A stretch of 64,000 nt of DNA from Candidatus Omnitrophota bacterium (lineage in GTDB: Bacteria; Omnitrophota; Gorgyraeia; Zapsychrales; Fredricksoniimonadaceae). The notes under the pieces are model-generated. The model did no database searches. It was not told where the DNA came from and worked only from the letters and a program-made list of their open reading frames with translations. The stretch lies in assembly GCA_028865345.1 (NCBI GenBank), contig JAGWKL010000003.1, forward strand, positions 184-64,183. The letters are read 5' to 3'. The translations under genes were made by a program, and so were the position numbers. Of the stretch, positions 9,540-56,310 are shown piece after piece (position 1 is the first letter of the stretch; the number at the start of each line of letters is the position of its first letter).

Positions 9540-10613
9540 ATGATTAATCAAATAAGGAAGTTTTTTAAGCTGATTTATGACCAGGCCCTGGGCCTGTTCT
9601 CAAAGGACATCGGTATCGATCTGGGCACCGCCACGACCTTGGTCTACGTCAAAGGCGAAGGGGTGGTGCTCTGCGAACCGTCGGTGGTCGCCATCGAAAA
9701 AGACACCAACCATGTTCTGGCCGTCGGTGAAGAGGCCAAGCGCATGCTGGGCCGCACGCCGGGCAGCATCGTGGCCATCCGTCCTATGAAAGACGGGGTC
9801 ATTTCGGATTTCGAAGTCACCGAGGCCATGCTCAAATATTTCATTAAAAAGGTGCAGCCCAACCGTTTTTCGTTCCGTCCCACCATTGTCATTGCCATTC
9901 CCTCGGGCATCACCCAGGTTGAAAAGCGGGCGGTGATCGATTCCGCCGAGCATGCCGGGGCCCGTAACGTGATCCTGATCGAAGAGCCCAAGGCCGCGGC
10001 CATCGGCGTCGGCCTTCCGGTGCATGAGCCCGCGGGCAACATGATCATTGACATCGGCGGCGGCACCACGGAATTCGCGGTCATTTCATTGGGGGGACTG
10101 GTGTACGCCAAATCCATCCGCATCGCCGGCGATGAAATGGACATGGCGATCATCGAATATTTGCGTAAAACTTATAATTTGATGATCGGTGAGCGCACCG
10201 CCGAAGAAATCAAGATCCGCCTCGGCTCCGCCTATCCGTTGGACGAGGAATTGAATATGGATGTGCGCGGCCGCGACCTGATTGCGGGCCTTCCCAAGAC
10301 CATCAACGTGACCTCCGTGGAGATCCGCGAGGCCCTGCAGGACCCTGTGCAGGCCATTGTGGACGCTTCCAAATCAACACTTGAGCATACGCCCCCGGAA
10401 CTGGCCTCGGACTTGATCGATCGCGGCATTGTCATGGCCGGCGGCGGTTCCCTGCTGCGGGGTCTGGACAAGCGCATTGCCGAAGAAACCGGATTGCCTG
10501 TGCATGTGGCCGATGACCCTTTGACCGCGGTGGTCAACGGAACAGGGGCGACCCTGAACATGTCTCCGCTGGTGCGCCGGCGTTTTACAGCCCAGGCCAA
10601 ATTAGATTTTTAA
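9540..10613 (+). CDS. mreB: Rod shape-determining protein MreB
   Basis: Actin-fold motifs [21 protein letters not shown] and [12 protein letters not shown]. Confidence 0.95.
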
Positions 10614-10620
10614 GTGAATC

Positions 10621-11400
10621 GTGTGGCGCAAAACTTTCAAAAAAGCCGCTTATATCGGCATCGTTGCCGTCCCCTTCCTGATCCTTTTTTTTCACCCGAA
10701 GAATTATAGGGCCGCCGGATTGTTAGACGCTGTTGCCGGGCCTGTGGATGCATGGCAGGGTCCTGTCTTCGAGTTGAAAAAATTGTTTTATTACAGGGAG
10801 ACGTATGATGAGTATGTGTATTTCAAAAGACAAAATGAAGTACTGAAAGCCAGGCTTACCGCGCTGCGGGAGGATGAAGAGGCCCGAAAACGTTATGATA
10901 AAATCCGGGATTTCCGCAATAGTCAAAGTTACGGGTCTATCGTGGCCGATGTCATCGGCCGGGACCCTTCTGATTGGAATGCGTCATTGATCATTGACCG
11001 CGGCCGCGCCGAGGGCCTCAAAGTGGGCCAGCCGGTGGTTAATCCGCTGGGGGTGGTGGGCAGGGTTTTTGAGACGGGCGAGCACACGGCCAAGGTGGTC
11101 TTGCTTTCCGATCCCACCTTTGCCGTTGCCGCGGTGGACCAGCGTTCAAGGGAAAACGGGCTTTTGACCGGCACGCTGGAAGGGAATTTACGCTTTGAAT
11201 ATTTGACGGACAAGGCGGACGTGAAGGTTGGGGATGTGCTGGTGACCTCCGGCTTAAGCACCGCCTTTCCGGAAGGGATATTGATCGGGCGTATTACCAA
11301 TGTGAGCGCCTCGGCCAACGTCCATAGCGTGGATTGCCTGGTAACGCCGGCGGTGGACCTTTCCCAGCTGGAAGAAGTAATTATTATTAAAAAGACATGA
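10621..11400 (+). CDS. mreC: Rod shape-determining protein MreC
   Basis: N-terminal TM segment, a coiled-coil stretch, then the MreC beta-domain region (GLVVGRV... pattern: PLGVVGRVFE). It lies immediately downstream of mreB. Confidence 0.85.
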   Translation: MWRKTFKKAAYIGIVAVPFLILFFHPKNYRAAGLLDAVAGPVDAWQGPVFELKKLFYYRETYDEYVYFKRQNEVLKARLTALREDEEARKRYDKIRDFRNSQSYGSIVADVIGRDPSDWNASLIIDRGRAEGLKVGQPVVNPLGVVGRVFETGEHTAKVVLLSDPTFAVAAVDQRSRENGLLTGTLEGNLRFEYLTDKADVKVGDVLVTSGLSTAFPEGILIGRITNVSASANVHSVDCLVTPAVDLSQLEEVIIIKKT

Positions 11401-20321: not shown

Positions 20322-23300
20322 ATGACTTTTTCATCCATCCGCCGTTCCTGGTATTCCCGTTATATTAGCTTATGTCTTATGGCCGCCTTTATAGGGACCA
20401 TGGTGATTACGCCTAAGGCTTATGCTCAGGAGGGGGTTTTGGGACTGCCCCAACCAGGGGCAATGGTGGATCTATCTCCCGCTTATGTGCCGCTCATGAT
20501 CACCGGTTTGACCGTGCATCCCCACAATCCTTTATTAATGGATTTTATTGTTAATACCGGCAACAGCGGCTTGGATGCCGCCCAGGTTAAAAAAGAATCC
20601 GGCCGCCTGATCAAATATTTTTTGGCCTGCCTCACCATTCCCGAGAACGATCAGTGGGTCAACCTTTCGCCGTATGAAAAAGACCGCATCATCCCCAAAG
20701 ATTTAGGGCAGACCGTATTGGGCCGGGATATGCTGGCCCAGGATTATATTTTGAAACAATTGACCGCGTCCATGATCTATCCGGAAAAGAATTTGGGAAG
20801 GAAATTTTGGAACGACGTTTACGCAAAGGCTCGTCAGATGTACGGCACCACCCAAATCCCGGTGAATACTTTTAATAAGGTATGGATTTTGCCGGAGTTT
20901 GCCCAAGTCTATGAACATGGCAACACCGTACTTGTCGTCAAGAGCCATCTCAAGGTCATGCTCGATCAGGATTATCTGGCTTTAAAACACCATGCGCAAG
21001 GGGTGAGCAGCACGGCCGAAGAATCCAAAGTCGATACGCTCGGAAGTCAAATCGTCCGCCAGGTCATTCTTCCGGCCATAGAACATGAAGTCAACACGGG
21101 CAGGAACTTCGCCCAAATGCGCCAGATCTATAATTCCATGATCCTGGCCGTCTGGTTTAAGGAGAATTTGAAGCAGGCCCTTCTCAACCAGGTCTATACG
21201 GACAGATCCAAGGTCAACGGCGTCAATGTGGCTGACCCGGCCATTAAAGAAAAGATATACAGGCAGTATCTTGAGGCCTATAAGAAGGGGGTATTCAACT
21301 ATATTAAGGAAGAGACCGACCCTAACAGCCAGGAGACCATCCCTCGTAAATATTTCTCCGGAGGGCTGACTCCGTTTGATGCCGCCATGCTTCATAAGGT
21401 GCCGGCAGAGGAAGCCGAGGCCGATCTTAGCGGCCAGCCTGGAAGAACTTTCGATCTCCTGAGTGAGGTCGGCAAGGTTCCGGGGAACGCGGCCCATCCC
21501 AACGCGGCGATGACGGTTTCTTTGAATAGGGGCTTAACAGAGGCATTGAATCAATTAGGCGTTTCAAATCAACTCAATGCGGTCCAGGGAATCATGGTGG
21601 ATGCCGTCAATGTTGAGGGGTTTTTGGGTAATTTGGATAAATTGTATGAGGGCAAGAAAAGTCCGGAAGCCATCAAAACCGCCCTCACCAATGTCGGGAT
21701 TCTGTCAAGAGACGGCACAAGCATTACCACAGAAATATTTGATCAAAACAATGCAGTGACGATGTTCAAATCCAGGTTGGGCGTCAAGGAAGTTTATGTC
21801 CTGAGCATTCAAAAAGCCATGGTGGATGCCATGGATGTGCCCCAATTTTTAAAATCATTTCCGGATGAACAGCAATCCACTGTTGCAGAGGCTTTAGTCA
21901 ACAACGGCGGAGACAACGGCATTTTTGAGGCGTTCAAGCCTTTTGTATCAACGCCCCAAACTTCCAACGCGGCCATGACATCGACTATTGAAAGCGCATG
22001 GCGACGGGCTGATGAGATGGGATTAAAGGGAGCGATTTTGTTGGAATTTGAAGAAGAACATCCCCGGGGAGGCGGAGACATTAATTTATTTGTCCCGGCC
22101 GTCCTTGCACCATTACATCAGGTGAAAGGGAAGCTGCTTTCCGGTTTTCCTCACGGCTCTGGTAAAGATGTTTATATTGATGGGACTCCCGGTTTTTCTC
22201 CCGATAATATTATTATGATCAAATGGAAGGATCTGGTTTATTTGGCCCCGCATCTAAAGCCCCAGGGGTTGTCGGCCATTTTGAGTTTTTTTCAGGCGCA
22301 ACACCAGGGATTGCCCCAAGCCAATGATTTGATAGAGATCGTACGGACCGATGCGGCAATGGCTGGCCAACCCAGCCGGCAGCTGGAAAATATTTTGTCG
22401 GAAAAAGTGACATCGGTCAAAGAAAGCATGCAGCCCCTGCTGGAGGCTTACGACGCGGCCAAGGCCCAAGGTCAGGCCGATAAGGTCAAAGGCATTGAAG
22501 GCGAAATCAACCAGATCGTCGACAAGGTCAATGTCTACGATCAATCCAACCCCGAAGATTTGGTCCTTTCTGATGATGTTCAATCCCTGGCAGGCTTCTT
22601 AAGCAGTCCCGATGTTCGGGTCTATCAGAATGAGGCCAGGCAGGATCTTTTAACGGGCGACTATGTGCCGCAATTTATTTTTGCCGGCGCGGCCACGCGC
22701 CTTAACCGTGGGCCGATGTATAACTTGGATATTTGGGACATAGCTGTGGAAATGGGTAAGGCCAAACCGGGAGATGCCAAGTCACATATGGGTATGGGGC
22801 CCCGCCAGATCATGGCTTACCGTTTGGCGTTGGAATCCCTGGCCCAGAAGAATGGGCTTCCGGTGCAGGAGGTTCTGGCCAGGCAGAAAATGATCGTTAA
22901 CGTGAATGCTGACGTTGAGCAGATTGTTCTGGACGATTTTCTCAAGAATGATTTCTACGGATTCGACCCGGACAATGTTTATTTCATCACCCAGCCGACC
23001 TTCCATGGTTATAAATTTGAAAACGGTCGTTTGGTGTTTGATCCGAAAAGCCCCACGGTGCCTTATGGTCATGGATATAATTTTATGCAATTGGGCCAGC
23101 CGGGGCAGGCGTATACATTGGGTCTCGACGGAAGCCGCCGCTATTTGAAAGGCAGTGTTTTGAGCCAGTTCCCTGATGATGCCCTCATTGGCAGCCATCG
23201 CATCAATGATTTGACCAAACTCTCCGAGGATTCCGTGGTCAGTGTGGATAAACTGGCTTTTGCGATCGCCAAATTTGAACAGGGCTTTGACGTGGTCGGG

Positions 23301-26018
23301 GAACTGGTCGATAACCCCAACAAGCAAAAAGGCGGGAATGTGTTGAAGAACAGGAAGACCGGCAAGAGCTTTCTGATTGAGACTTCGAATGTCAAAGGCA
23401 ACCCGGCGCTCATCAAGCTCCTGGATGAAGCTGGGAAGGTGGGCGCGCCGTATAATGCTTTCAGGCTGGTGTATAAGGTCGGAGGTTTAAAAAAGATCCT
23501 GCAGGAAAATTTGCCGTTTAACCTGAGGTTCAAGGATGGAGAGTTTTATTTGGAGGCGGTTACAGGTGATGTGACCCAAATGCCTGATACAAATGCCGTG
23601 TTCATGAACTCAGGGGAGCAGATACATGATTTTAAAGAGCCCAAGAATATGGACGATGCTCTCTATTATTTGAGGAAAAGCGACGATCAAATAGCTTCCG
23701 CTAATCCGGCGATGGTTACAGATGAATCCATTTTGTCCTGGCGCTCCCCGCACGGCCTGTCCTTGAGCCAGGTTTTGGACAAGATCATCAAGGAGTACGA
23801 TATCCGCGGATTTGACGGATATGGCGATCAGACGCAATATCCCCAGCAGATGGATGCCACGTTGCTGCGCTGGATCGGCCGGGCGTTGGGGATGGTGAAA
23901 TTTTATTCGGCGGCGCACGACAGGGAAGTCCAATTGAAGCCGGGGGACACCTTTGTTATCGGCGGCGACAATGGGCCGTCAACGGAGGAATTGGTAAAGA
24001 AGAATTTGATTAAAGGCTTGCGCGATGTGGGGATCAACGTGATCGACCTGGGCGTCACCAATTCCGGGCACACGTATAAGAGCATTAAAGAATTTGGGGC
24101 GCAGGGCGGCCTGTATGTTACGCGCAGTCATGTGGAGGTGGGGACCAACGGCGCAAAACCCATTATCGACGGCATTACCCTTTATGGTGAAATGCTTACG
24201 GCCATTAAAGGCCAAATCCTCAAGGCGGAGTACCGCAAGGCGCAGCGCGGGGAATTAATGACCGAACATGAGCCGGAAGCGGCAAGTTTGAGGGCCAGGG
24301 CAAAACAAGCCTATCTGGATTCATTGAAGCGGGATTACCGCGGATTGGCTGACCAGCTGTCGCAAATGGGATTGCGGGTGGCCGTTAATTTAAACAGCGG
24401 TTCCATGGCGGCAGATGCCGATTATCGCCAGGTGATCCGCGATATTCTCGGTGCGGGGAATATTGAAACCTTTCTTAAAGAGGAACCGGATGCGCTGGCC
24501 ACAAAGGGCCTGGCCGATCCGTCACGTGCCGACGAAAAAGCTTTGGCCCACAAGGAAGCCAATATTGTGGCCTACTCCGAAAACCATCCGGACGTTCCTG
24601 TTTTTAACTTTGACCTGGACGCGGACAGGGTGAGTATTTTATGGAACGGCCGGCTTTTCCTGGGGGATGAAATATTTTATCCCATCATTGAATACCAGTC
24701 GACCCTGGCGCCCTATGCGGATATCCTGAGAAATGAAGCGGGGTTTGCTTTTGATTCGCGGATGAAATCGGAAGTTTTTGAACTGGCGAAGCATTTTGGC
24801 GTAAAAGCCGGGCTGCACCCGAAGGGGCACTCAAAAGTGAAAGCCACCATGGATGTCATCCTGCGCCAGATCGCCTCCCAAAGAGGAATGACGGTGGCCA
24901 AATTTTTGAAAACACATCCCGGCTTCCGCATGGCCGAACCGGAGTATTCGCTTCATATGTTCCTTTCGAATTCCAGGGGGGAATCCTTGGATGATGCCCT
25001 GGATTTCATGTTTTTCTGGCTCAACGCGTGGGGAAAAGTTACAGAAGCAAAAGGCGATTCCCAGCTCACGCTTGCACAATACATTCAGAATTTAAAGGAT
25101 AAAGGCATTATTAACGATGCCAAGCAGGTGCCGGAACAGCGCATCCCCATTAATGAAGACGCCAAATTTGATTCGATGACAAAGATGAAAAATGCGGTGA
25201 TTGACTTTTTTGCGGGGCGGGATGATTTCGAATATATCAGCGATTACCGGGACTCCAGCAAGAGGTCAAAATCCTATGCGTTGGTCAATAATGACGGCGT
25301 GTTTCATTTGTATACCCCTTACGGCGAGGCTTTCTGGGGATGGTCAAACACTTCTCCGAAAGTGGCCATTGGCGTGCAAAGCGCCACGGAGGAATCCAAG
25401 AAGCGGTTGGCCCAAATCGTCACGGCCATGTATATTCATGCCCGCAACAGGGTCGCTGAGGATTTGCACATCAGCCTTCCCCAAATAGATCCGCTTGAAA
25501 CAAAGGCGCTTTATCAGCTTATGGGGGCATCATCTCCGGGCGAGTTGGAAGGCAAGATCCTTGAGAAATATCCGACCATGGAGGCCGCCTTAAGCGCAAT
25601 ACCCGATGCCGCGATGGCTGCAAGCAGTGCGGTCATTGGAGAAGAAACCGATTGGCTGCGGGCGATCAATTCTTCCGGCAGCAATGAGCAGCTTAAAGGA
25701 ATCACCAAACAGCTCTCCCGCAGCGGATTGCCGGAGCGTGAAATAGAAAAATTGATCCAGGCCGCCAATTTCAGGCGAAAACTCATCTTTAAGAATGAAA
25801 AGAATAAATACGGCTTGGGCAGATCTCAAGCCGAGCCCGGCGGTATCGACCTTAATTCCAGAACGCTGAACATGGAGAGTACGGGGCAAAAGGTGCACAT
25901 CACCTTTGACCCTGCCATGATCGCGCAATTCCGTCGCGGGGATTTTTCCGGCGTTAAAATCCAAATTCTCAACGTTGTTCCGATCCAGCTTGCGCCGTTA
26001 TTGGGTCTCAAACAATAG
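20322..26018 (+). CDS. Giant (1,898-aa) signal-peptide protein with internal phosphohexomutase-like and UDP-sugar-pyrophosphorylase-like regions
   Basis: One uninterrupted ORF with an AGGAG RBS and an N-terminal signal peptide (…AFIGTMVITPKAYA|QE). By eye, residues ~1120-1500 follow the phosphoglucomutase/phosphomannomutase motif order (DIRGFDG; VIGGDNGPS; GGLYVTRSHVEVGTNG in place of TASHNP; DLDADR in place of DGDGDR). Residues ~760-1100 have NTP-transferase/UDPGP-like loops (FAGAATRLNRG; PYGHGYNF). The rest is unassignable. Confidence 0.8.
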   Translation: MTFSSIRRSWYSRYISLCLMAAFIGTMVITPKAYAQEGVLGLPQPGAMVDLSPAYVPLMITGLTVHPHNPLLMDFIVNTGNSGLDAAQVKKESGRLIKYFLACLTIPENDQWVNLSPYEKDRIIPKDLGQTVLGRDMLAQDYILKQLTASMIYPEKNLGRKFWNDVYAKARQMYGTTQIPVNTFNKVWILPEFAQVYEHGNTVLVVKSHLKVMLDQDYLALKHHAQGVSSTAEESKVDTLGSQIVRQVILPAIEHEVNTGRNFAQMRQIYNSMILAVWFKENLKQALLNQVYTDRSKVNGVNVADPAIKEKIYRQYLEAYKKGVFNYIKEETDPNSQETIPRKYFSGGLTPFDAAMLHKVPAEEAEADLSGQPGRTFDLLSEVGKVPGNAAHPNAAMTVSLNRGLTEALNQLGVSNQLNAVQGIMVDAVNVEGFLGNLDKLYEGKKSPEAIKTALTNVGILSRDGTSITTEIFDQNNAVTMFKSRLGVKEVYVLSIQKAMVDAMDVPQFLKSFPDEQQSTVAEALVNNGGDNGIFEAFKPFVSTPQTSNAAMTSTIESAWRRADEMGLKGAILLEFEEEHPRGGGDINLFVPAVLAPLHQVKGKLLSGFPHGSGKDVYIDGTPGFSPDNIIMIKWKDLVYLAPHLKPQGLSAILSFFQAQHQGLPQANDLIEIVRTDAAMAGQPSRQLENILSEKVTSVKESMQPLLEAYDAAKAQGQADKVKGIEGEINQIVDKVNVYDQSNPEDLVLSDDVQSLAGFLSSPDVRVYQNEARQDLLTGDYVPQFIFAGAATRLNRGPMYNLDIWDIAVEMGKAKPGDAKSHMGMGPRQIMAYRLALESLAQKNGLPVQEVLARQKMIVNVNADVEQIVLDDFLKNDFYGFDPDNVYFITQPTFHGYKFENGRLVFDPKSPTVPYGHGYNFMQLGQPGQAYTLGLDGSRRYLKGSVLSQFPDDALIGSHRINDLTKLSEDSVVSVDKLAFAIAKFEQGFDVVGELVDNPNKQKGGNVLKNRKTGKSFLIETSNVKGNPALIKLLDEAGKVGAPYNAFRLVYKVGGLKKILQENLPFNLRFKDGEFYLEAVTGDVTQMPDTNAVFMNSGEQIHDFKEPKNMDDALYYLRKSDDQIASANPAMVTDESILSWRSPHGLSLSQVLDKIIKEYDIRGFDGYGDQTQYPQQMDATLLRWIGRALGMVKFYSAAHDREVQLKPGDTFVIGGDNGPSTEELVKKNLIKGLRDVGINVIDLGVTNSGHTYKSIKEFGAQGGLYVTRSHVEVGTNGAKPIIDGITLYGEMLTAIKGQILKAEYRKAQRGELMTEHEPEAASLRARAKQAYLDSLKRDYRGLADQLSQMGLRVAVNLNSGSMAADADYRQVIRDILGAGNIETFLKEEPDALATKGLADPSRADEKALAHKEANIVAYSENHPDVPVFNFDLDADRVSILWNGRLFLGDEIFYPIIEYQSTLAPYADILRNEAGFAFDSRMKSEVFELAKHFGVKAGLHPKGHSKVKATMDVILRQIASQRGMTVAKFLKTHPGFRMAEPEYSLHMFLSNSRGESLDDALDFMFFWLNAWGKVTEAKGDSQLTLAQYIQNLKDKGIINDAKQVPEQRIPINEDAKFDSMTKMKNAVIDFFAGRDDFEYISDYRDSSKRSKSYALVNNDGVFHLYTPYGEAFWGWSNTSPKVAIGVQSATEESKKRLAQIVTAMYIHARNRVAEDLHISLPQIDPLETKALYQLMGASSPGELEGKILEKYPTMEAALSAIPDAAMAASSAVIGEETDWLRAINSSGSNEQLKGITKQLSRSGLPEREIEKLIQAANFRRKLIFKNEKNKYGLGRSQAEPGGIDLNSRTLNMESTGQKVHITFDPAMIAQFRRGDFSGVKIQILNVVPIQLAPLLGLKQ

Positions 26019-39554: not shown

Positions 39555-40913
39555 TTGAAGGGACAGGGCATGCCCAATAAATTCATTTCTATCAACCAGA
39601 GCATCGGGGTGGCAGGCTCCTTCCTGGTTTTGATCGTATTTTGTTATTTTGCCGGATTCCCGTTGATCGCTCCTTTGCTGGTGTTCTTTTGCGGCATCCA
39701 TCTGTTTTATTTTAAGAAAGCCAATTCCCGTATTTTTCTGCATTTGTCCCTGCTGTTGGCCCTGCTTGTTTTTGCGGCCAATGCCGTTAAATCCTATGGG
39801 CACCTCATCCATTTTTATCTGCCGGTGGCCTCTCTGGCCATGCTCACGATGCTTTTGTTCAACGACGCGCAGGTCAGTTTCATTATGGCTTTGTTGGGCG
39901 CGGTGGTGGCCTGCCTCATCCTCGGGTTCGGCCTTAACGAGATGCTGATCTTTTTTTTGGGCGGACTTGCCGGCAGCTGGCGGGTACGGGAGGCGCGTAC
40001 CCGCGGGGTGGTGATCGAAGCGGGGATTTTGGTCTCCGTCATCCAGGTGATCTGCGCTTTCCTGATCAATCCCGTCGCCAATAAAGATATTGTCATATAT
40101 ACCCTCAAACCCCTGGCGTTCAACGGGCTGATAAGCGCTTTTGTGGTGATTGCGGCCTTAAAAGTTTTTGAGACGATCTTCGGCGAGATCACCAATTTCA
40201 CTCTCCTGGAACTTTCCGATTCTTCTCATCCTTTGTTAAAGCGCATGGTGGTGGAAGCTCCCGGGTCCTACCACCATAGTCTGATCGTCAGCAACCTGGC
40301 GGAAGCGGCGGCCGATGCCATCGGCGCTAACGCGCTTTTGGTCCGGGTGGGGGCGTATTACCATGACATCGGCAAACTGGTCAATCCCGAGTATTTCACG
40401 GAGAACCAGTTGGTTGTCGGTAATAAACATGACGAGCTGGAGCCGTCCATGAGCCGCCTGGTCATCTCCAATCATGTCAAGGAGGGCGTTGAGCTGGCGC
40501 ACAAATACCGCCTGAACAAGCGTATCGTCGATTTCATCCCCGAGCACCACGGCACCAGCATCATGTATTATTTTTATCAGAAAGCCCTGGCGGAAGGGCC
40601 CCATGAAGGCCTCAACGAACGTGATTACCGTTATCCAGGTCCCAAGCCGCAGAGCAAGGAGACCGCCATTGTACTGCTGGCGGATTCTGTGGAAGGCGCC
40701 ACCCGGGCTTTGGAAGAGCATACGTTGAAACGCATTGAAGACGTGGTGCGCAAAGTGATCAATAATAAATTCATCGACGGCCAGTTGGATGAATGTAACC
40801 TGACATTAAGGGAGATCGATACGATCGCCTCCAGCTTTGTGCGGGTCTTAAGCGCCACGTATCACAGCCGCATCAAATATCCCGAAGAGCGTTCTTCTGA
40901 CAAGAATTCATAA
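39555..40913 (+). CDS. 7TM-HD family membrane-associated phosphohydrolase (HDIG domain)
   Basis: An N-terminal 7-TM region and a C-terminal HD motif (HH...YYHDIGK). Conserved phoH-HD-ybeY synteny. Confidence 0.85.
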   Translation: MKGQGMPNKFISINQSIGVAGSFLVLIVFCYFAGFPLIAPLLVFFCGIHLFYFKKANSRIFLHLSLLLALLVFAANAVKSYGHLIHFYLPVASLAMLTMLLFNDAQVSFIMALLGAVVACLILGFGLNEMLIFFLGGLAGSWRVREARTRGVVIEAGILVSVIQVICAFLINPVANKDIVIYTLKPLAFNGLISAFVVIAALKVFETIFGEITNFTLLELSDSSHPLLKRMVVEAPGSYHHSLIVSNLAEAAADAIGANALLVRVGAYYHDIGKLVNPEYFTENQLVVGNKHDELEPSMSRLVISNHVKEGVELAHKYRLNKRIVDFIPEHHGTSIMYYFYQKALAEGPHEGLNERDYRYPGPKPQSKETAIVLLADSVEGATRALEEHTLKRIEDVVRKVINNKFIDGQLDECNLTLREIDTIASSFVRVLSATYHSRIKYPEERSSDKNS

Positions 40914-40924
40914 GGAAGGGATCC

Positions 40925-41326
40925 TTGGAAATAGCCTTAAAAAACCTTCAAAAGAAGATCTCCATTCCCCAAGGTCCGGTCATCAAGGCGGCTCAGGCGG
41001 CCTTGCGCAAGCTTAAGGGCGTCAACAAGGCGCGCTGCCTTTCGATCGTTTTTGTCGGCCCCAAGCGCATGCGCGCGATCAATAAGAAATATTTGGAGCA
41101 TGATTATGTGACGGATGTGCTGACCTTTGATCTCGGGAAGGGTGTCGCCGAGATCATCATCTGTCCGCTCATGGCCCGCGTCAATGCACGGGTCTGTCAA
41201 ACGACGACCGGCAGGGAAATCATTCTCTATGTCATCCACGGTATTCTGCATCTGGCCGGTTTTGACGACCACCGGCCGAAAGACATCATCCGAATGCGGC
41301 GGATGGAGAGAGAATTGCTAAAATAA
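40925..41326 (+). CDS. ybeY: Endoribonuclease YbeY (rRNA maturation)
   Basis: HGILHLAGFDDH matches the H-x3-H-x5-H zinc motif. 133 aa. Confidence 0.85.
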   Translation: MEIALKNLQKKISIPQGPVIKAAQAALRKLKGVNKARCLSIVFVGPKRMRAINKKYLEHDYVTDVLTFDLGKGVAEIIICPLMARVNARVCQTTTGREIILYVIHGILHLAGFDDHRPKDIIRMRRMERELLK

Positions 41327-41373
41327 GAGGATAAATTTTCTTGTTTTTGATATTCGGCCATAGTATTTCCCTC

Positions 41374-41486
41374 GCAGGCACGCTCGCCGCGTCCAGCGAC
41401 GCGGCTTCACTAGGGCCCGGGCCGATTTGTCGCCGCATGGAAAAAACGCAAGCGAACCATGCCAAATCGGCCCTCTACTGCCTGCT
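41374..41486. other. Multi-stem structured element (~113 nt)
   Basis: Perfect complementarity was seen directly, in a cloverleaf-like arrangement. The outer stem is GCAGGCA/TGCCTGC. Hairpin 1 is GCCGCGTC-CAGC-GACGCGGC (8 bp). Hairpin 2 is GGGCCGATTTG…CAAATCGGCCC (11 bp) with nested GCATGG/CCATGC. No family was assigned. Confidence 0.3.
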
Positions 41487-41516
41487 CGGAAAATACAATG
41501 GCCTCATATGCAATTC

Positions 41517-41754
41517 TTAAAGAGAGGAATTTATTATTTTTGCGACTGTAGCTTTTAGCCAAAGCAGCTCATGCTTCTGAGGGCATCCCTCGGCTTTTGG
41601 CCGAGGGATGGCTGAACTTGTTCGAGCCTTGAAGTTCTAGAGAACTTCAAGGCGAGTTGTTCAGCCACCGAAGAAGCATGAGATCTTTGGCGACCCCACC
41701 GTAGGCGGGGTAAAAGCGGTTCCAGGAGCAAAAATAATAAGTTCCTCTCTTAAG
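41517..41754. repeat. ~238-bp imperfect nested palindrome (MITE-like) with ~23-nt terminal inverted repeats and TTAA at both edges
   Basis: The termini are TTAAAGAGAGGAATTTATTATTTTTGC (left) and GCAAAAATAATAAGTTCCTCTCTTAAG (right). Internal arm matches are CTCATGCTTCT/AGAAGCATGAG and GGCTGAAC/GTTCAGCC. The central 13-bp perfect palindrome is GCCTTGAAGTTCT-AG-AGAACTTCAAGGC. The left arm carries an extra hairpin CATCCCTCGGC-TTTTG-GCCGAGGGATG. Confidence 0.5.
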
Positions 41755-41815
41755 AAAGTTTATTGATCGTCATTCGTGAACAAAAGGGACAAGATTCCTA
41801 TTCTATAGAAGTAAT

Positions 41816-42316
41816 ATGAAACGTATCATAGCCATAGCGCTTATCTCTTACTTCGCCTATGCCCTGGAATTCCTGCTGTACAATTTCTGGGGGCCGTGGG
41901 GCCGGTGGCTCAAGCCGGAGCTCATGCTCCTGGTGGTGATATTCTTTAACCTGTATTTGGGGATACGTTTCAGCATCATCGCCGCGCTTTTTTGCGGAAT
42001 ATTCAAGGACGCATCGGGGATAGCGCCCTTCGGGACATATCTGCTGGTTTACCTGTCGGCAAGTTACTTGACGACGTTCGTGCGGCGGTATTTGTACGAA
42101 CCCGGTTCAAGGTTTTCCAGGATCGTCGTCGTTTTTTGCGTTGTCGTGGGGTGTTTTATCGTGCAGACCGTCCTGGCAAACATGGGCCGACAGGTCGCTT
42201 TGGGCCCCTCGCTCGTCTACATTTTAGTTCCGCAGCTGTTGACAACGCTTGCCGCTGCCACCTATGTTTTTGCGCAGTTAAAAAATATCAGCGTGTTTTT
42301 CACATTAAAGGGTTAG
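41816..42316 (+). CDS. mreD: Rod shape-determining protein MreD
   Basis: 166-aa polytopic membrane protein immediately upstream of PBP2. Hydrophobic profile and size fit MreD, but the family is weakly conserved. Confidence 0.7.
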   Translation: MKRIIAIALISYFAYALEFLLYNFWGPWGRWLKPELMLLVVIFFNLYLGIRFSIIAALFCGIFKDASGIAPFGTYLLVYLSASYLTTFVRRYLYEPGSRFSRIVVVFCVVVGCFIVQTVLANMGRQVALGPSLVYILVPQLLTTLAAATYVFAQLKNISVFFTLKG

Positions 42317-42317
42317 G

Positions 42318-44030
42318 ATGCGCCTCAATATCATTCAATCCGTTGTTTTTTTCCTGCTGGGGGCGATCATCTGTAGTTTGTTTTATATGCAGATCATCCA
42401 TGGCGCCTATTGGCGCCGCCAGAGCACGAATAATCGCATCCGTATCGTGCCTGTCGACGGACCGCGGGGAAGGATCCTGGACCGTCATGGGACCGTTTTG
42501 GCCGATGACCGGGTGGCATTTGAGGTGGGGGTCATTCCCCAGGACATCGAGGATCAAGGGGCTTTATTCGGTTATTTAGGAAGCGTGCTTCATCAAGACC
42601 CCCAATCCCTGGAGCGCCGCTTCGGGCGTGAAAAACAGGCCCCTTTCGCGCCTGTCATTCTGGCGGAGGATGTCCCGCGTCAGCTCGCCATCAAGATCGA
42701 GGAGGAAAAATTTGTTTATCCGGGGCTGATCGTCCAGCAGGGCTTCGAACGTTACTATCCTTTTCATGACATCGGCGCGCATGTGCTGGGTTATGTGGGC
42801 AAAATCAGCAAAGATGAGATTGCCGAAAACCATTCCTACGGTTATACGCCTTTAAGCCGGGTGGGGAAAACAGGCATTGAAGAAGAGTACGAACCGTTTT
42901 TAAAAGGACATCCGGGGGGCCGTCAGATCGAGGTCAACAGCCGCGGCCGGCAGGTGCGCCTCCTGGGCCTCAAGGATCCGTCGGCTGGAAACGACGTGGT
43001 GCTGACCGTGGATGCGCGCCTGCAGGCGGCGGCCCAGGAATTGTTAAGCGGACAGCGCGGCGGTATAGTGGTCATGAATTTAAACACCGGAGAATTGTTG
43101 TCTTTGGTCAGCTCGCCTTCCTATGACCCGAATGTTTTTTTGGACAAGACCAGGTCCGGCGAGCTGCGTTCCTATTTGAATGATCCCCTGACGCCTTTGT
43201 TTGACCGTGTGACTTGCGGCCTTTACCCGCCGGGTTCGGTGTTCAAGGTCCCGGAAGCCCTGGCCGCCATCCAGCTTCACAAGATCACGCCCCAGACGAC
43301 CTTTTTCTGTCCGGGGTACATGTTGGTGGGCAAGAGAAAATTTCATTGCGCGGAAGTGCACGGGGTGCAGGACCTGCAAGAGGCCATTGCGCATTCCTGT
43401 AATGTTTATTTTTTCCATGTCGGCCTGCTGCTCCAACCGCACCTCATCGGCGCATTTGAGAAAGCTTTCGGGCTCACTCGTCCCACAGGAATAGACCTGC
43501 CTTACGAGGCCAGGGGCCATATGGTGACCAAGGCATCAAGGGGCAGGCCGTGGTATACGGGGGATGTGCTGAATTTGTCCATCGGCCAGGGGTATACGCT
43601 GGTGACGCCTCTGGAATTGACGGTGATGATGGCGGCGGTCGCCGATGACGGCATCGTTTTGCAGCCCCGCCTTGTCCGGCAGATAGGCGGCCGTCTGCTT
43701 ATACCGGAAGATCTGTCCAAAAGGCCATTGATCAAGCTGCGCAAGCAAACATGGCAGATCGTGCAACAGGGACTTAGAGCCTGCATTGATGATCCGACGG
43801 GAACATGCCGTGACCTGGCAGCGGTGCCGGGTCTGGATATTTACGGTAAAACAGGCACCGCTCAAACTGTTTACGGTAAGCCCAATGACGCATGGTTCGT
43901 GGGCTATACGCGGTCTGCCAAAGCAGGCATCGCTATCTGCGTTTTTCTGGAATACGGAGGGTCGTCCGAGAATGCCGTCAAAATTGCCCGGGATCTGCTT
44001 TTAAAACTTCAAACCCTCAAGGTCATATGA
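42318..44030 (+). CDS. mrdA: Penicillin-binding protein 2 (peptidoglycan D,D-transpeptidase)
   Basis: N-terminal TM segment, PBP dimerisation domain and a transpeptidase domain with SxxK (SVFK), SxN (SCN) and KTG (KTGTA) motifs. Confidence 0.9.
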   Translation: MRLNIIQSVVFFLLGAIICSLFYMQIIHGAYWRRQSTNNRIRIVPVDGPRGRILDRHGTVLADDRVAFEVGVIPQDIEDQGALFGYLGSVLHQDPQSLERRFGREKQAPFAPVILAEDVPRQLAIKIEEEKFVYPGLIVQQGFERYYPFHDIGAHVLGYVGKISKDEIAENHSYGYTPLSRVGKTGIEEEYEPFLKGHPGGRQIEVNSRGRQVRLLGLKDPSAGNDVVLTVDARLQAAAQELLSGQRGGIVVMNLNTGELLSLVSSPSYDPNVFLDKTRSGELRSYLNDPLTPLFDRVTCGLYPPGSVFKVPEALAAIQLHKITPQTTFFCPGYMLVGKRKFHCAEVHGVQDLQEAIAHSCNVYFFHVGLLLQPHLIGAFEKAFGLTRPTGIDLPYEARGHMVTKASRGRPWYTGDVLNLSIGQGYTLVTPLELTVMMAAVADDGIVLQPRLVRQIGGRLLIPEDLSKRPLIKLRKQTWQIVQQGLRACIDDPTGTCRDLAAVPGLDIYGKTGTAQTVYGKPNDAWFVGYTRSAKAGIAICVFLEYGGSSENAVKIARDLLLKLQTLKVI

Positions 44031-44113: not shown

Positions 44114-46921
44114 ATGATAAAAATATTTTTAGGAGTATTTATACTATTCCTTTTTCCACCGGCCGGGAACGTCCTTGTTTTTGCCGGCCAACCCGCATCC
44201 GATTCGAACGGTCAATCTCTCACACCGACGGAAACAGCCCAACAGACCAAGGCCCATGAGTATTATGAAAAGGGCATGAAGCTGATCAACGAAGGCAAAC
44301 CCGACGAGGCGAGTCAATATTTTGAAAAGGCCATCCAGTTGGCCCAAACTCTGCAACAACCGAACATCAAGCAGCCTTCCCGGCAGCAAGCCGCCGTTTC
44401 GCCTAAAGCCGCGACCGTGCCTGTTCTGACTAAGCCCGAGGAAGGTCAAAAGACACAACAGCAACAGCAACAACAGCAACAGCAGGCAGAGAAGCGGCGC
44501 CGGCAACAAGAGGCTCTGCGCCAACAGGAATTCGAGGCAAAAAGACGTCAACAGATGGAGGCGCTTCAACAGCAGTATGTGCAGGCCATCAGATTATATA
44601 AGAAGAAAGAAATGGACAAAGCTTTAGGGGCATTCAAGGAGATTGAAAATTCATATCCTGATTTTAAGAGGACGACGGGATACATAGAGCGCATTGAGCG
44701 CTGGCAGGCGGAGCGCAAAGAGCTGGCAGAGAGGCGCCAGATGGCGCTGGAACTGAAAGCCAGGAACGATCAGGCTTCCAAAATATATGACACGGCCCTG
44801 CGTTCATACCGTGCCCGTCAATGGCAGGCGGCCGGCGCCCAATTCGAATCTGTGGCGCAGATAATTCCGGATTATAAACATACCCAATGGTATTTGAAAA
44901 AGATCGGAATTTTTATGGCCAGGGAAGCGGCCCGGCCGTCGTCTCCCTCGCCGGTCGAGGGCAGCCCCAAGCCCGCTGCGGCACCGGTCAAACCCAAGTT
45001 GACGTCTGCCCCCGCACCGGTTGTGCCTGTGGTCAAGACGGCGGTTGATTCCCTGGAGGACCAGCAAAAACAAGCCCGGGACATTGCGGCTTTGGCCCAA
45101 GAATCATCCATGCTTTATCATCAGATCGCCGACATTGCCGACGATAAGTCGACCATCCAAACAAAGGCCAAAATGGCCCAGGTTGATGAGATCCTGAACG
45201 GTTTAAAAGCGAATAAGGAACGCCTTTATCAAGAAGACCTCGCTTCCGAAGTTGAAAAATTCTACCAGCAGGGCCGGGATTATTTGGGTTCCCATGATTA
45301 TGCGAACGCTAAAATCAAATTCATGGAAGTGGAGCATATCTGGCCCGATTATAGAGACACCCGCCGTAATTTGGGCCGCATTGATGAAGCCTTAAAGAAA
45401 CAAAGCGTCGAGGCCATCACCGGGCGGGAACGGGCACGGGCGGAGCAGTTTGAGAAAATGCAGTATCAGGAAATCGCCGCGCAATTACGGCGTGATGAAT
45501 TAGAGCAGGAAAATGAGCTGCGCCTGGCCCGGCAGCAGCAGGATTCTTTAAAAGAACTTGCCCGAAAAGCTTCCGATATCAATGATGACATCATCCGTCT
45601 CTCACGGGCCCAGGATTATGAAGGCATGAAAAGGAAGTTCGTCCAATTACAGGGCACTATTGATGCCTTGACGCAGCTTAAAGCGCAGATGGCCATGCAA
45701 CAAGGCAAAATAGAACGCGCCAAACAACTGAGCCGGGACGCCATCCGACGCCGTGATGAATTGATGAGGGAAGCAAAACAGGAGAACGGTCAAATTTCGG
45801 GGAGCACGAAAAGCTCATATCATCAAAAGGAGCTTTCTGGATTTTTGCTTTCCAACCGGCCCACCAGAGCGGATATTTACAAACGCCGCGAGATCATGCG
45901 GGAGCAGAACGCCCTATTTGATGAAGCCGTTGAATGTTATGCCCGCCGTCAATATGCTCAGGCCAAACTTCTTTTTGGCGAGTTGGCCAGTCAGCATGAC
46001 CGCAGGTCCGAGGCCTGGCTTAAAAAAGTGGACCGGGCCATTACCCGGGAGCTCCTTAAAGGCCAGGAAGCGCAAGTTCGGGAACGGACGGCATTTTTAG
46101 AGGACCAGTTGAAAGCCCAGCGCCAACTGGCTGTGGTCCAGGAGCGCGAACGCCGGCACCAAAAGAAATTGACCGAAGAGTTGGAACGCCAGAAGCGCGC
46201 TTACGAAGACAACCGTTTGATGCAATGGCGGAAACAAGAGATGCTCGAGGCCCAGGTTCTTGAACGCCGGCGCCAGGAAGAAAAGCATGCCCAATGGGAA
46301 AAAGAGAAGGCAAAAGAAGAGAGAGAGTTCCGTTTCCGTAGAATAACAAATGCGGCAAAGCCGGCCGCAATAAGCTCTAAGGCCGGGGCGCAAGCTCGAA
46401 GTACCCTATCTAAAGCGAAGCTTGCTGCTGTTTCGCATGCCGCAACTGTTGAGGTCAAGCCTAAACCTGCTGTTGCCAAACCCAAACCTGTTGCGGTCAA
46501 GCCTAAACCTGTTGCGGCCAAGCTTAAACCTGTTGCGGCCAAGCCTAAACTTGTTGCGGCCAAACCCAAACCTGCTGCTGTCAAATCCAAACCTGTTGTT
46601 GTGCATGCTGCTTCGCTTGAGGTCCGGCGTGAAGAGCTCCGTAAGCAATTACAGCATGGGGTTGAGTCCCTTTATCAGGGGGCCTTAAGTTTATACCGGG
46701 CAGGAGATTATGCCCAAGCCGCGAACAGATTCAAAGATGTTGATGAAATATTCCCCGGCTATAAAAATACCAGAGAATATATGGACAAGGCCCGCCGGAA
46801 GTCTTCGGCCGTAAACTCTGAGGCTCCCGCGAACCCCCATGTGTCCGGGAATTCAACATCGAATAACCGCCAGGGTTATATTTCCAGAGCGTTGGATTTA
46901 TTTGATACGAATGACCAATAA
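44114..46921 (+). CDS. Secreted repeat protein: poly-Q tract, charged coiled-coil segments, six dispersed TPR-like motifs, C-terminal KPKPVAA tandem repeats
   Basis: The ATG at 44114 gives a signal peptide ([24 protein letters not shown]). The ORF-track start at 43892 overlaps mrdA. The recurring motif is Y-x2-G/A-x3-Y-x4-Y-x2-A-x3-F-x8-PDYK(D/N)T-x2-YL (e.g. [29 protein letters not shown]). ER/Q-rich heptad regions lie between copies. Confidence 0.6.
44457..44486 (+). repeat. (CAR)10 trinucleotide repeat encoding Q10
   Basis: caacagcaacagcaacaacagcaacagcag, seen directly. Confidence 0.9.
46457..46603 (+). repeat. Seven tandem 21-bp units (AAGCCTAAACCTGTTGCGGCC-like) encoding (KPKPVAA)7
   Basis: Seven head-to-tail units of 21 bp each, with 0-4 substitutions per unit. 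They also create the spurious alternate-frame ORF 46422..46688. Confidence 0.9.
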
Positions 46922-49910: not shown

Positions 49911-51368
49911 ATGAAGATCATCAGAACCATTCTCGTTAGCCTGTTGGCGTTGATGCTGGTCGCCGCCACCGTTCTTTTTATATTCTTTCAGACTTTTGAC
50001 GCAGACCAGTATTTTCCCCGAATGGCCCCAAAAGCATCAAGGGCATTGGGGCGGACGGTGGTCTTGGGGCATATGGGGCTGGGGTTGTCTTTACGGGGCA
50101 TTACCGTCGACGCAGGACCTGTGACTGTGGCGGACGACCCCGGATTTACAACACAACCGTTCATTGAGGTCAAGAGGGTCCGTATCGGCCTTAACTGGTG
50201 GGCTCTCATAGCCCGTCGGAAAATCCAAATTACAACCATCCTCCTGCAGTCGCCGCAGATCCATTTTATCATTAATGAGCAGGGGGATGTCAATGTTCAT
50301 AGTTTTGCTCAGAATGGCGTCTTATCGGGTGGCGAGGAATGGATGTTAAGGAGCGCACGGTACCGGCACAAGGGGCAGCCTATTGGGGAATCACCGTTGA
50401 AGCGGGCTTTTGGGTTGCCCTCGCGTCCCAAGGAGCACCTTAACATCCATTCCGAGCCAAGCCCCGCTGCGTCGCCAATTTCTATAGAAATACGGGACGC
50501 TTCCATTTCTTTAATCGACCAAAATCCTTATGTGCCCCTGGATATTTGGCTGGAAGGTGTCGATGCCGATGTGAAGGGTTTTTCTTTCTCTGCTCCATTT
50601 GTTTTGTCCTTCGGCGGCTGTTTTTACAGGAATGCCCCCAATGTCCATGCCCGAGCTCAGATGTATTTTGATGCCCTCCGGAAAACTTTCAACATCACTA
50701 ACCTGCAATTGGCAGCCGATCTCTCCAGGCTTCAGGCCGATAGGCTCGACGGTATTTCTCCGGGAACGCCGGGAACAGCCGTTCTTAAAAACATCACCGG
50801 GAAACTGGGGCTGGACATGGGCCATCTGGATTTTAGCCCTACCGCGGGGGTTTACGCCGATGGCCATATCACCGTCACCGACGGGGTATTAAAGGGGTTC
50901 AATATCATTAAATTTCTTTTTTCCCGGTTCCTGGGTAATTTTATAGGAGGCAATATCGAAGCTCTTTTTAAACGTCAAAGCCAGCTGACCGCGCCCGATA
51001 CCGTCATTCAAAGAGCCGTTGTTCAGTTTTCCTATCGCCGGGGCACCCTGTTCATCGATGATTTTCTTGCCCAAACCAATATTTTTGAATTGAACGCCAA
51101 AGGTTTGCTTATGCCGGGATGGAATGCAGACATGCAGACCGTGTTGCATTTGGACCGGAATGTTTCCGAGGGGCTGATCGGTGAGTTTCATGGATTAAAG
51201 CGCCTGGAGGACACAAGTCAGCGCGTCGTCATAAACGCGAGCCTCAAAGGGACCATCCCTCATTTAAAATACAAGCCGGACAAGGATTTCAGAAAAGAAA
51301 GCAGAAAAGCGCTGATGGAAGAAGGCGGCAATATTTTAGGCGCCTTATTGGGCGCTCGCGGGCTGTGA
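49911..51368 (+). CDS. AsmA-family protein (envelope biogenesis / inter-membrane lipid transport family)
   Basis: The internal ATG at 49911 gives an N-terminal TM anchor (MKIIRTILVSLLALMLVAATVLFIFF) followed by a beta-rich repetitive sequence typical of the AsmA-like N-terminal region. The assignment is by overall pattern. Confidence 0.55.
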   Translation: MKIIRTILVSLLALMLVAATVLFIFFQTFDADQYFPRMAPKASRALGRTVVLGHMGLGLSLRGITVDAGPVTVADDPGFTTQPFIEVKRVRIGLNWWALIARRKIQITTILLQSPQIHFIINEQGDVNVHSFAQNGVLSGGEEWMLRSARYRHKGQPIGESPLKRAFGLPSRPKEHLNIHSEPSPAASPISIEIRDASISLIDQNPYVPLDIWLEGVDADVKGFSFSAPFVLSFGGCFYRNAPNVHARAQMYFDALRKTFNITNLQLAADLSRLQADRLDGISPGTPGTAVLKNITGKLGLDMGHLDFSPTAGVYADGHITVTDGVLKGFNIIKFLFSRFLGNFIGGNIEALFKRQSQLTAPDTVIQRAVVQFSYRRGTLFIDDFLAQTNIFELNAKGLLMPGWNADMQTVLHLDRNVSEGLIGEFHGLKRLEDTSQRVVINASLKGTIPHLKYKPDKDFRKESRKALMEEGGNILGALLGARGL

Positions 51369-55459: not shown

Positions 55460-55771
55460 TCATTTAAGCAACTCTGCCAGCTCTCCGTTTTCATGCATCT
55501 CGGCGATGATGTCCGCGCCGCCGACAAATTCCCCGTTGATAAAGACTTGGGGGATGGTGGGCCAGTTGGTAAATTCCTTGATCCCCTGGCGCAGTTGGTC
55601 GTCGGAAAGGACATCGTGGTCTTTGAGGGCAACGCCGTAAGACTGCAGGATCTGCACCGCCCGTCCGGAAAATCCGCACATGGGGGAAGCCGCAGTGCCT
55701 TTCATATAGATCACTACTTTGTTATTCTTGACGTCGTCTTCAATTTTTTTACGTAATTGATCGGTCAACAT
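55460..55771 (-). CDS. grxD: Monothiol glutaredoxin (Grx4/GrxD family)
   Basis: CGFS active site (MCGFSGRAVQIL). Confidence 0.85.
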   Translation of the reverse strand: MLTDQLRKKIEDDVKNNKVVIYMKGTAASPMCGFSGRAVQILQSYGVALKDHDVLSDDQLRQGIKEFTNWPTIPQVFINGEFVGGADIIAEMHENGELAELLK

Positions 55772-55795
55772 AGCGACTCCTGTTGGTTGGTTTTG

Positions 55796-56053
55796 TTAAA
55801 GCCCGTATTGCGATTTGGCTTCATCCCATTTGGCCGGCGTAAAGGTCTTCAGCCCCAGGGCATGGACCACTTGAAAAACATCCTTGATGGAGGCCATGAC
55901 CATCTGCTGCTGTTTAAATACAGGCATCCCCTCAAACGCAGGGGATATGACAAAAGCCTGCAGGTGCGCCCCGTCATTCATGGGATCAAGCACATGGGCC
56001 TGAGATCCAGGGACGGCAGATTCGATCCGGTGTTTGATTTCTTCGGTTGTCAT
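55796..56053 (-). CDS. BolA-family protein
   Basis: 85 aa. The C-terminus VHALGLKTFTP matches the BolA (…IHAL…T.TP) pattern. Confidence 0.7.
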   Translation of the reverse strand: MTTEEIKHRIESAVPGSQAHVLDPMNDGAHLQAFVISPAFEGMPVFKQQQMVMASIKDVFQVVHALGLKTFTPAKWDEAKSQYGL

Positions 56054-56310
56054 GGTTTATTTTTCTTAATCCACTCAATAATATCCAATGATTCATAAAG
56101 GGCCTTACCGTCAATGACAAGGCAGGGGACCTGGGGCTTGCCGCCGATCGCAACCAGCTCATCGCGCCATGCGGGATTTTCACGGATGTCCTTCATGGGC
56201 ACAACAATGCCTTCTTTATTCAAAAAATCCCTGACCCTCTGGCAATAAGGGCATGCCATAAAATGGTATAAAGTTAAGTCCGACAATATTCTTTGTTTTT
56301 TCGACGTCAT
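56050..56310 (-). CDS. Dithiol glutaredoxin
   Basis: CPYC active site (MACPYCQRV). 86 aa. Confidence 0.8.
   Translation of the reverse strand: MTSKKQRILSDLTLYHFMACPYCQRVRDFLNKEGIVVPMKDIRENPAWRDELVAIGGKPQVPCLVIDGKALYESLDIIEWIKKNKP

Follow-up and report, generated by a model that had tools for sequence, protein, structure and literature searches.

What is a 238-bp nested imperfect palindrome doing in the spacer between ybeY and mreD of a compact bacterial genome, and how did it come to be there? The question is raised by a stretch of 64,000 nt (hereafter the window) from contig JAGWKL010000003.1 of assembly GCA_028865345.1, a genome whose database matches carry the name Candidatus Omnitrophota. 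A preliminary description, made from the sequence alone, had proposed either a miniature inverted-repeat transposable element (MITE) or a large structured RNA. Our comparison with sister strains shows that the palindrome is part of a 0.5-kb block gained by a single lineage. We consider it somewhat probable that a single strain recently acquired orphan, palindromic, non-coding DNA of a MITE or foldback type, which sits within the 0.5-kb insert and is passively co-transcribed.

The junction was read across in three sister assemblies, found through an exact match to the MreD protein: L001 (GCA_028871075.1) and the Logan assemblies L002 and L003. By BLAST, window and sister strains agree at 99.6-99.9% on either side of the junction, as far as 41316 on the left and from 41812 on the right. 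The 495 nt enclosed in the window correspond to 25 nt in the sister strains, whose ybeY-mreD spacer is 16 nt long.

41317 to 41811, no strand: strain-specific segment, 495 nt in place of the 25 nt of the sister strains (ATTAGCAGAATAAATTTATCCCTTA)

Protein records agree with this picture. YbeY of the window type (...RMERELLK, MDE2008996.1) is found on one contig, 192,530 nt in length, and the type that goes with the short spacer (...RMESELLAE, 134 aa) in three other genomes as well as in the Logan assemblies. In all, one of six assemblies of the species carries the insert, the short form being implied by protein records alone in two genomes. Single-nucleotide polymorphisms (SNPs) between the window and its sisters are few and scattered and do not cluster at the insert: over 40850-43677, the junction excepted, L001 has none, L003 one (over the part covered) and L002 six. 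By these SNPs the insert-bearing strain is nested among insert-less strains, all of which share an identical short junction, which argues for a gain in the window lineage and not for repeated loss. A deletion in the other strains was rejected, as their 25 nt are no subset of the window sequence and the same short form is present in all three. The presence/absence polymorphism, its direction (gain) and the sharp edges of the insert are direct observations. The preliminary description had held that an identical sequence at the same locus in relatives would speak for a locus-specific structure; comparison of the ybeY-mreD junctions gave the opposite, the element being absent from all relatives compared. 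The insertion is also an exceptional event on the scale of the strain comparison, since about 55 kb of window set against the sister loci revealed no other insertion or deletion except a 42-nt change in the length of a tandem repeat.

That tandem repeat, a 21-nt unit in 7.3 copies at 46446-46598, lies inside a large open reading frame (ORF) for a TPR protein and is 42 nt (two units) longer in the window than in strain JAGWIR010000010.1.

The palindrome is the top-ranked inverted repeat within the 64-kb window. A repeat search and a reading of the sequence recovered the palindrome, its arms, its centre and its arm hairpins as they had been described, with some refinement of the limits. The extent first given, 41517-41754, does contain the palindrome, but the stem is slightly longer and runs from 41514 to 41757; the perfect 13-bp palindrome at the centre maps to 41626-41653; and the bulges specific to each arm do form hairpins of their own in the predicted fold (41585-41609 on the left, 41693-41711 on the right).

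41514 to 41757, no strand: domain 2 (nested imperfect palindrome); length 244 nt including the stem extension; about 98 pairs
41520 to 41548 and 41723 to 41751: terminal arms, 29 nt, 90% complementary
41514 to 41543: left terminal arm, TTCTTAA, one bulged base, then GAGAGGAATTTATTATTTTTGC; 7 + 22 pairs with 41728-41756
41728 to 41756: right terminal arm, GCAAAAATAATAAGTTCCTCTC, then TTAAGAA
Inner arm pair CTCATGCTTCT/AGAAGCATGAG: 11 nt, 100% complementary
Inner arm pair (T)GGCTGAAC/GTTCAGCC(A), also written TGGCTGAAC/GTTCAGCCA: 9 nt, 100% complementary
41626 to 41653: central perfect palindrome, GCCTTGAAGTTCT AG AGAACTTCAAGGC, with halves of 13 nt each at 41626-41638 and 41641-41653
41585 to 41609: hairpin of the left arm only, 11-bp perfect stem, with no counterpart in the right arm
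41693 to 41711: hairpin of the right arm only, ACCCC.CC ... GG.GGGGT

Arm-versus-arm alignment shows the two arms to be near-identical wherever they overlap, apart from the arm-specific hairpins. The terminal stem is a 22-bp perfect helix with an extension of 7 bp, in which TTCTTAA (41514-41520) is predicted to pair with TTAAGAA (41750-41756), so that the stem extends beyond TTAA. Both TTAA motifs that had been taken as bounds of the element are thus present, but they are part of the stem and are not demonstrable as a target duplication, since pairing runs through and past them.

The one large hairpin of the preliminary description does not exhaust the spacer: a second large structure, not mentioned there, precedes it.

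41310 to 41518: domain 1, branched hairpin (about 200 nt), closing stem GAGAATTGC/GCAATTCTT
41320 to 41347: small A/U-rich hairpin of 12 pairs that covers the ybeY stop codon, in the fold of 41305-41520
41758 to 41811, + strand: insert tail, 54 nt, A/T-rich and unstructured, running to the mreD start codon

By repeat search, the long arms of domain 1 (41350-41380 and 41479-41509) are 31 nt in length and 81% complementary; inner hairpins lie at 41386-41405 and 41419-41473. Its predicted minimum free energy (MFE) is -93 kcal/mol on the + strand (z = -6.8) and -94.7 kcal/mol on the - strand (z = -6.2). Neither large stem is followed by a U-tract, the stem of the palindrome being succeeded by AAGAAAGUUUAUUG, whereas an intrinsic terminator is marked by a G+C-rich stem directly before a U-tract. 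On the + strand, no terminator-like site was found over 41000-42100 and no promoter-like site in the insert.

Two further long inverted repeats of the window lie inside genes: one at 50330-50459 in an AsmA-like gene (25-nt arms, 88% complementary, 80 nt apart) and one at 716-838 in a PNP_UDP_1 gene (22-nt arms, 95% complementary, with 79 nt between them). The insert tail shares a 10-nt palindrome, TTCTATAGAA (41801-41810), with positions 50480-50489, where it forms the centre of a 32-nt palindrome (50469-50500); this coincidence is possibly due to chance.

RNA folding, which the preliminary description had proposed as a check, gave structure far beyond chance on both strands. As + strand RNA the palindrome has an MFE of -137.4 kcal/mol, compared with -69 +/- 4.4 kcal/mol in dinucleotide shuffles (z = -15.6). 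The value for the - strand is -128.3 kcal/mol (z = -13.7), and single-stranded DNA yields z = -15.0; the fold from which the helices were listed gave -141 versus -132 kcal/mol for the two strands. In the predicted structure 96 of 98 pairs are Watson-Crick and two are G-U (2%), with the same counts on the opposite strand. The terminal stem has a single G-U wobble, between T 41531 and G 41740, which favours the + strand by about 9 kcal/mol. With so few wobble pairs and equally good folding of the two strands, nothing in the pairing points to an RNA made from one strand in particular. In these predicted structures the pairing pattern is the signature of a DNA-level palindrome, either of recent origin or maintained at the level of DNA, and not that of a long-selected RNA.

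The proposal of a large structured RNA found no support, whether from Rfam, from conservation in relatives or from strand-specific pairing. Covariance models of Rfam 15 at the gathering score had no match in the whole 64-kb window, and relaxing the threshold to E <= 10 over 41200-41900 brought up just three junk matches. No homologue in which compensatory base changes could show exists in any relative or collection examined. A tRNA/tmRNA search of the window also came out empty. Absence from the sister strains indicates that the element is dispensable.

If the palindrome is mobile DNA, other copies of it might be found. None was found when the BLASTN search put forward in the preliminary description was run on the window and on the loci of relatives: element and spacer gave only self-matches in the 64-kb window, and neither the roughly 127 kb of fetched loci nor the roughly 55 kb compared in sister strains held a second copy. 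The exact 21-mer common to both arms of the terminal repeat had two matches in 185,579 species-representative genomes (GTDB) and one in 241 million JGI metagenome records. These three (in Bacteroidia, in Eubacteriales and on an unrelated contig) were rejected as chance, each having a single arm with no partner nearby. In IMG/VR, five motifs (a 20-mer of the terminal repeat, the centre, an arm hairpin and two motifs of domain 1) had 0 matches. Against phages and plasmids, blastn of the insert with its flanks (41300-41830) returned nothing at E <= 0.01, and the terminal repeat had only chance matches to plasmids (E >= 1), none of them at the end of an insertion sequence (IS). The block also lacks coding capacity: its stop-free segments in six frames, concatenated and compared with 5.8 billion proteins, retrieved nothing at E <= 10.

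How well does the element fit a known kind? Four characters of MITEs are present, namely terminal inverted repeats, small size (< about 600 bp), lack of coding capacity and strain polymorphism. Of the first proposal, the general idea of mobile or foreign DNA gains support from the absence of the sequence in sister strains, but a MITE in the specific sense is not borne out: the unit that varies is not the 238-bp palindrome, no target duplication is demonstrable and no second copy was found. Prokaryotic MITEs are on record with copy numbers down to 1 per genome, as for MITEAba12, with 1-22 copies (PMC10969869), so that a single copy weakens membership of this class but does not exclude it. The features of REP/REPIN sequences (units of 20-40 nt, many copies, a RAYT) are not those of a single-copy, 244-nt unit in a window with no Y1 transposase. 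IS200/IS605-derived PATEs have subterminal hairpins in place of terminal inverted repeats, make no duplication, insert 3' of a fixed target of 4-5 nt and depend on a cognate TnpA. The insert is compatible with this kind in its hairpin-rich ends and in lacking a duplication; it is known from a single copy, and the window encodes no TnpA.

The closest likeness in size and setting is to the Correia elements (CREE/NEMIS) of Neisseria, which are also non-coding, measure 100-300 bp with terminal inverted repeats of about 25 nt, lie in intergenic positions within transcription units, form a long hairpin over the whole element and vary in presence among strains. In contrast to the single copy with no demonstrable duplication found here, Correia elements exist in tens to hundreds of copies with a consensus and a TA duplication. 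The unit gained here, moreover, has double the length of its palindrome and takes in another hairpin domain unrelated to it. ERIC/IRU, RUP, BOX, RPE and REP/REPIN sequences resemble it as imperfect palindromes that lie just after stop codons or between co-transcribed genes, and ERIC variants with internal insertions have additional sub-hairpins. Those families, unlike this element, have many copies with a consensus, and REP a RAYT transposase as well, neither of which was found here. In its nearly full-length self-complementarity the palindrome is closer to foldback elements than to classic MITEs, in which the termini alone pair, whereas foldback transposons are eukaryotic and have sub-repeated arms. 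Intrinsic terminators and mRNA-stabilising 3' hairpins share the stable stem-loop directly after a stop codon, but structures of 244 and 209 nt are about ten times the size of a terminator, lack a U-tract and are absent from the sister strains. We know of no bacterial family with both the architecture and the sequence of this palindrome.

Several points weigh against a MITE or foldback origin. The segment is single-copy in everything searched, the source genome being covered for the 64-kb window only, and the several dispersed copies expected of a MITE did not appear in those collections. The unit that differs between strains is the 495-nt segment and not the palindrome. No direct repeats flank this unit and no inverted repeats were found at its ends; the target was replaced, with no clear target-site duplication. 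The TTAA on both sides is self-complementary and lies inside the stem, and the sole type of empty site lacks the whole 495 nt together with any TTAA. No transposase in the 64 kb offers itself as product of a cognate IS. The left 20-30 nt of the insert are an apparent diverged copy of the ybeY end, which fits the import of a homologous allele equally well. Finally, transcription of the block and its processing by RNase III are inferred.

In the scenario that we favour, one lineage would have gained a hairpin-rich block of about 0.5 kb between ybeY and mreD, with the palindrome as one of its modules, and about 25 nt of the 16-nt ancestral spacer and the ybeY 3' end would have been overwritten on its arrival. 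The block would be palindromic DNA of selfish or foreign origin, an orphan of the MITE, foldback or REP kind that was either mobilised in trans or brought in from outside, and did not evolve in place. Its arrival could have been by transposition, by illegitimate insertion with local damage, or by import of a diverged homologous junction via very short patches of identity. Given its position inside a co-directional gene string, with no U-tract terminator and no promoter-like site, the block is probably transcribed through, and the lack of + strand promoter- or terminator-like sites in the insert suggests that mreD-mrdA depends for its expression on upstream transcription reading through the block. 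In transcripts that contain Correia elements, RNase III cleaves where the terminal inverted repeats are paired (PMC10969869). By analogy, the 22+7-bp terminal stem would form in the transcript a double-stranded RNA of the kind that serves as RNase III substrate. A cut at the paired terminal repeats would then uncouple ybeY from the mreD-mrdA mRNA without abolishing expression, and the expected effect of such a processing site would be neutral or mildly polar. There is no evidence that the block benefits its host.

The edges of the insert bear on the next explanation, and involve the two flanking genes.

40925 to 41326, + strand: ybeY, endoribonuclease YbeY, 133 aa (Pfam PF02130, E = 9e-25)
41317 to 41338, + strand: left micro-region of the insert, resembling the ancestral ybeY stop region, with the new stop codon at 41324-41326
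41816 to 42316, + strand: mreD, 166 aa (PF04093), the protein being identical in insert-bearing and insert-less strains

From 41311 the window reads AGAATTGCTAAAATAAGAGGATAAATTTTCTTG... where the sister strains read CGAATTATTAGCAGAATAAATTTATCCCTTA, so that the last codons of YbeY give ...RMERELLK and stop in the former versus ...RMESELLAE and stop in the latter. Gapped alignment makes the event a replacement of 25 nt and no clean insertion, and places the true left edge of the strain-specific segment somewhere within 41311-41339. On this side, AGGATAAATTT differs from the ancestral stop region AGAATAAATTT at one position, 10 of 11 being identical (p about 0.016 by shuffling); GAATTGCTAAAATAA agrees at 14 of 15 positions with GAATTGTTAAAATAA of L018, a distant relative; and the insert encodes ELLK and stop, the usual YbeY C-terminus of the clade. 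On the other side, alignment of the right end and tail with the ancestral spacer gave no significant similarity. An att duplication of the integrase type was rejected, the displaced ybeY end being missing from the right end of the insert.

These edges could also have been produced without any transposition in this genome, through replacement by a homeologous allele. The long spacer would then be resident in an unsampled related Omnitrophota lineage and would have been recombined in, for example after DNA uptake, with crossovers in brief stretches of conserved sequence (left, GGATGGAGAG; right, TAATATGAAACG). We regard this as unlikely, although it survives better than any other alternative. 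The clade-usual ELLK end, set against SELLAE in the sisters, and the nucleotide matches to L018 and to the ancestral stop region make the segment look less like random foreign DNA than like this very junction in a diverged, homologous form, and the replacement of 25 nt fits recombination. On the other hand, the adjacent coding sequence has no donor-type SNPs, the flanks being identical to 41310 and from 41812, which implies that both crossovers would have taken place on just 10-12 nt or so of homology. Moreover, no lineage with such a spacer came up in any collection searched, similarity to the ancestral spacer could not be detected at the right end, and the origin of the hairpins in the donor is left unexplained.

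A functional structured RNA on the + strand, be it a cis-acting module for processing or stability, a leader of mreD-mrdA or the cassette of an independent non-coding RNA gene, seems very unlikely. Its extremely stable predicted folding, its place within the operon on the sense strand and the advantage given to the + strand by the wobble in the terminal stem would all suit such a role. Against this, absence from 99.9%-identical strains and from all relatives examined marks it as dispensable and unconserved; it has no Rfam match; 2% G-U pairs and near-equal strands are typical of DNA palindromes; and no promoter- or terminator-like signals were found on the + strand. Pairing of the right arm in antisense with the 5' region of mreD was rejected, as the several matches of 9-14 nt are non-collinear and at chance level.

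Less probable again is that the whole segment of about 0.5 kb, with its two hairpin domains and its tail, moves as an independent module, free of protein genes and of a type not yet described. Such a module would enter at gene junctions by replacing a short target, via hairpin DNA and micro-homology, and would supply the gene upstream with a replacement for its lost 3' end (ELLK and stop for YbeY), in the way that integrative elements restore the genes that they enter.

We give even less credence to an assembly artefact, in which the 495 nt would be a chimeric path through the metagenome graph or a product of amplification. The insert is known from one metagenome-assembled genome, with no independent assembly that carries it, and palindromes are a known class of artefact in amplified or long-read data. 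Yet the sequence is novel and no inverted copy of the neighbouring genome, imperfect pairing and sub-hairpins private to each arm set the palindrome apart from fold-back chimeras, the YbeY frame is intact at the junction with its family-typical ELLK end, and the rest of the 64 kb is perfectly collinear with the sister strains.

The insert contains an ORF of 59 aa (41341-41520), with a TTG start at 41341, AAGAGGA as a Shine-Dalgarno-like sequence 8 nt upstream and a hydrophobic N-terminus; strain specificity and a high degree of structure are frequent in type I toxin loci. A search against 1.84 billion representatives gave one marginal match (E = 4.7e-4, 29% identity), made up of four separate stretches of a 394-aa protein, and the ORF has no match in Pfam. 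Least probable of all is hence a small-protein cassette, such as a type I toxin-like peptide regulated by a structured mRNA, given the lack of a credible homologue, Pfam match or hit among the 5.8 billion proteins, the adjacent GenBank accessions of YbeY and MreD (MDE2008996.1/MDE2008997.1), consistent with no gene annotated between them, and the position of the ORF wholly in a symmetric hairpin, where either strand has ORFs of comparable length.

In more distant relatives the gene order is the same and the spacer is not. In five such lineages (MreD 68-76% identical) the ybeY-mreD spacers measure -4, 25, 26 and 92 nt, without any resemblance to the insert. Unrelated small palindromic repeats are found in the ybeY-flanking spacers of other Omnitrophota, and suggest that ybeY-flanking junctions are colonised by palindromic elements in the clade. 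When searched for in the window, the relatives' repeats were absent, and they are unrelated in sequence to the insert. They support the general reading of mobile DNA, and no assignment to a specific family.

As to these repeats themselves, the small palindrome GTGTCATTGCGAG...CGACGAAGCAATCT lies downstream of ybeY in L010-L013 (L010, 2460-2500) and upstream of it in L018 and L019 (L018, 1500-1560). With distinct intergenic positions in these two lineages of Omnitrophota, it has the appearance of a dispersed REP/MITE-like family. Gene callers run into this repeat and produce artificial C- or N-terminal extensions of YbeY (...SLRGAP, ...NDEAISL). The 92-nt ybeY-mreD spacer of L018, the closest relative by YbeY, has at 1969-2060 the hairpins CACCCCCGA...TCGGGGGT and GGATTCCCGCTTTCGCGGGAATGACAG within a CTGTCA...TGACAG stem. 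The motif coding for DSRFRGND in this spacer also terminates protein P0152 of another lineage.

By Pfam, the co-directional string around the insert comprises phoH, a 7TM-HD gene, ybeY, mreD and mrdA. The preliminary description had noted that no transposase is present, and this holds for the whole 64-kb window: among its 48 ORFs Pfam identified no transposase, integrase or reverse transcriptase, and housekeeping families only. The mreB-mreC pair (9540-11400) lies 30 kb from mreD-mrdA (41816-44030), which is placed instead behind phoH, the 7TM-HD gene and ybeY, an arrangement constant in all relatives examined. Downstream of mrdA the relatives have giant ORFs of 2254-4029 aa, and in the window an ORF of 1898 aa (20322-26018) has a weak PGM_PMM_I domain as its sole Pfam match; giant proteins are apparently common in the clade. 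On the - strand, an apparent gap of 912 nt between large ORFs (55460-56310) is filled by three small genes, which from their sequences are putatively Grx-like (103 aa), BolA-like (85 aa) and Grx-like (86 aa). They adjoin gshA, gshB and another bolA, which suggests a neighbourhood devoted to redox and Fe-S cluster functions.

On present evidence the insert represents no new class of biology. It does carry a practical warning: predicted structures with z about -15 may be recent DNA palindromes and not functional RNAs, and strain comparison separates the two quickly. If the origin that we favour is true, the locus would be a dated snapshot of palindromic junk DNA entering the compact genome of an uncultured Omnitrophota bacterium, a single event on a 99.9%-identical background, in an operon that joins RNA maturation (ybeY) to cell shape (mreD, mrdA). 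The strains with and without the insert would then form a natural pair for the effect of a 244-nt hairpin on operon expression.

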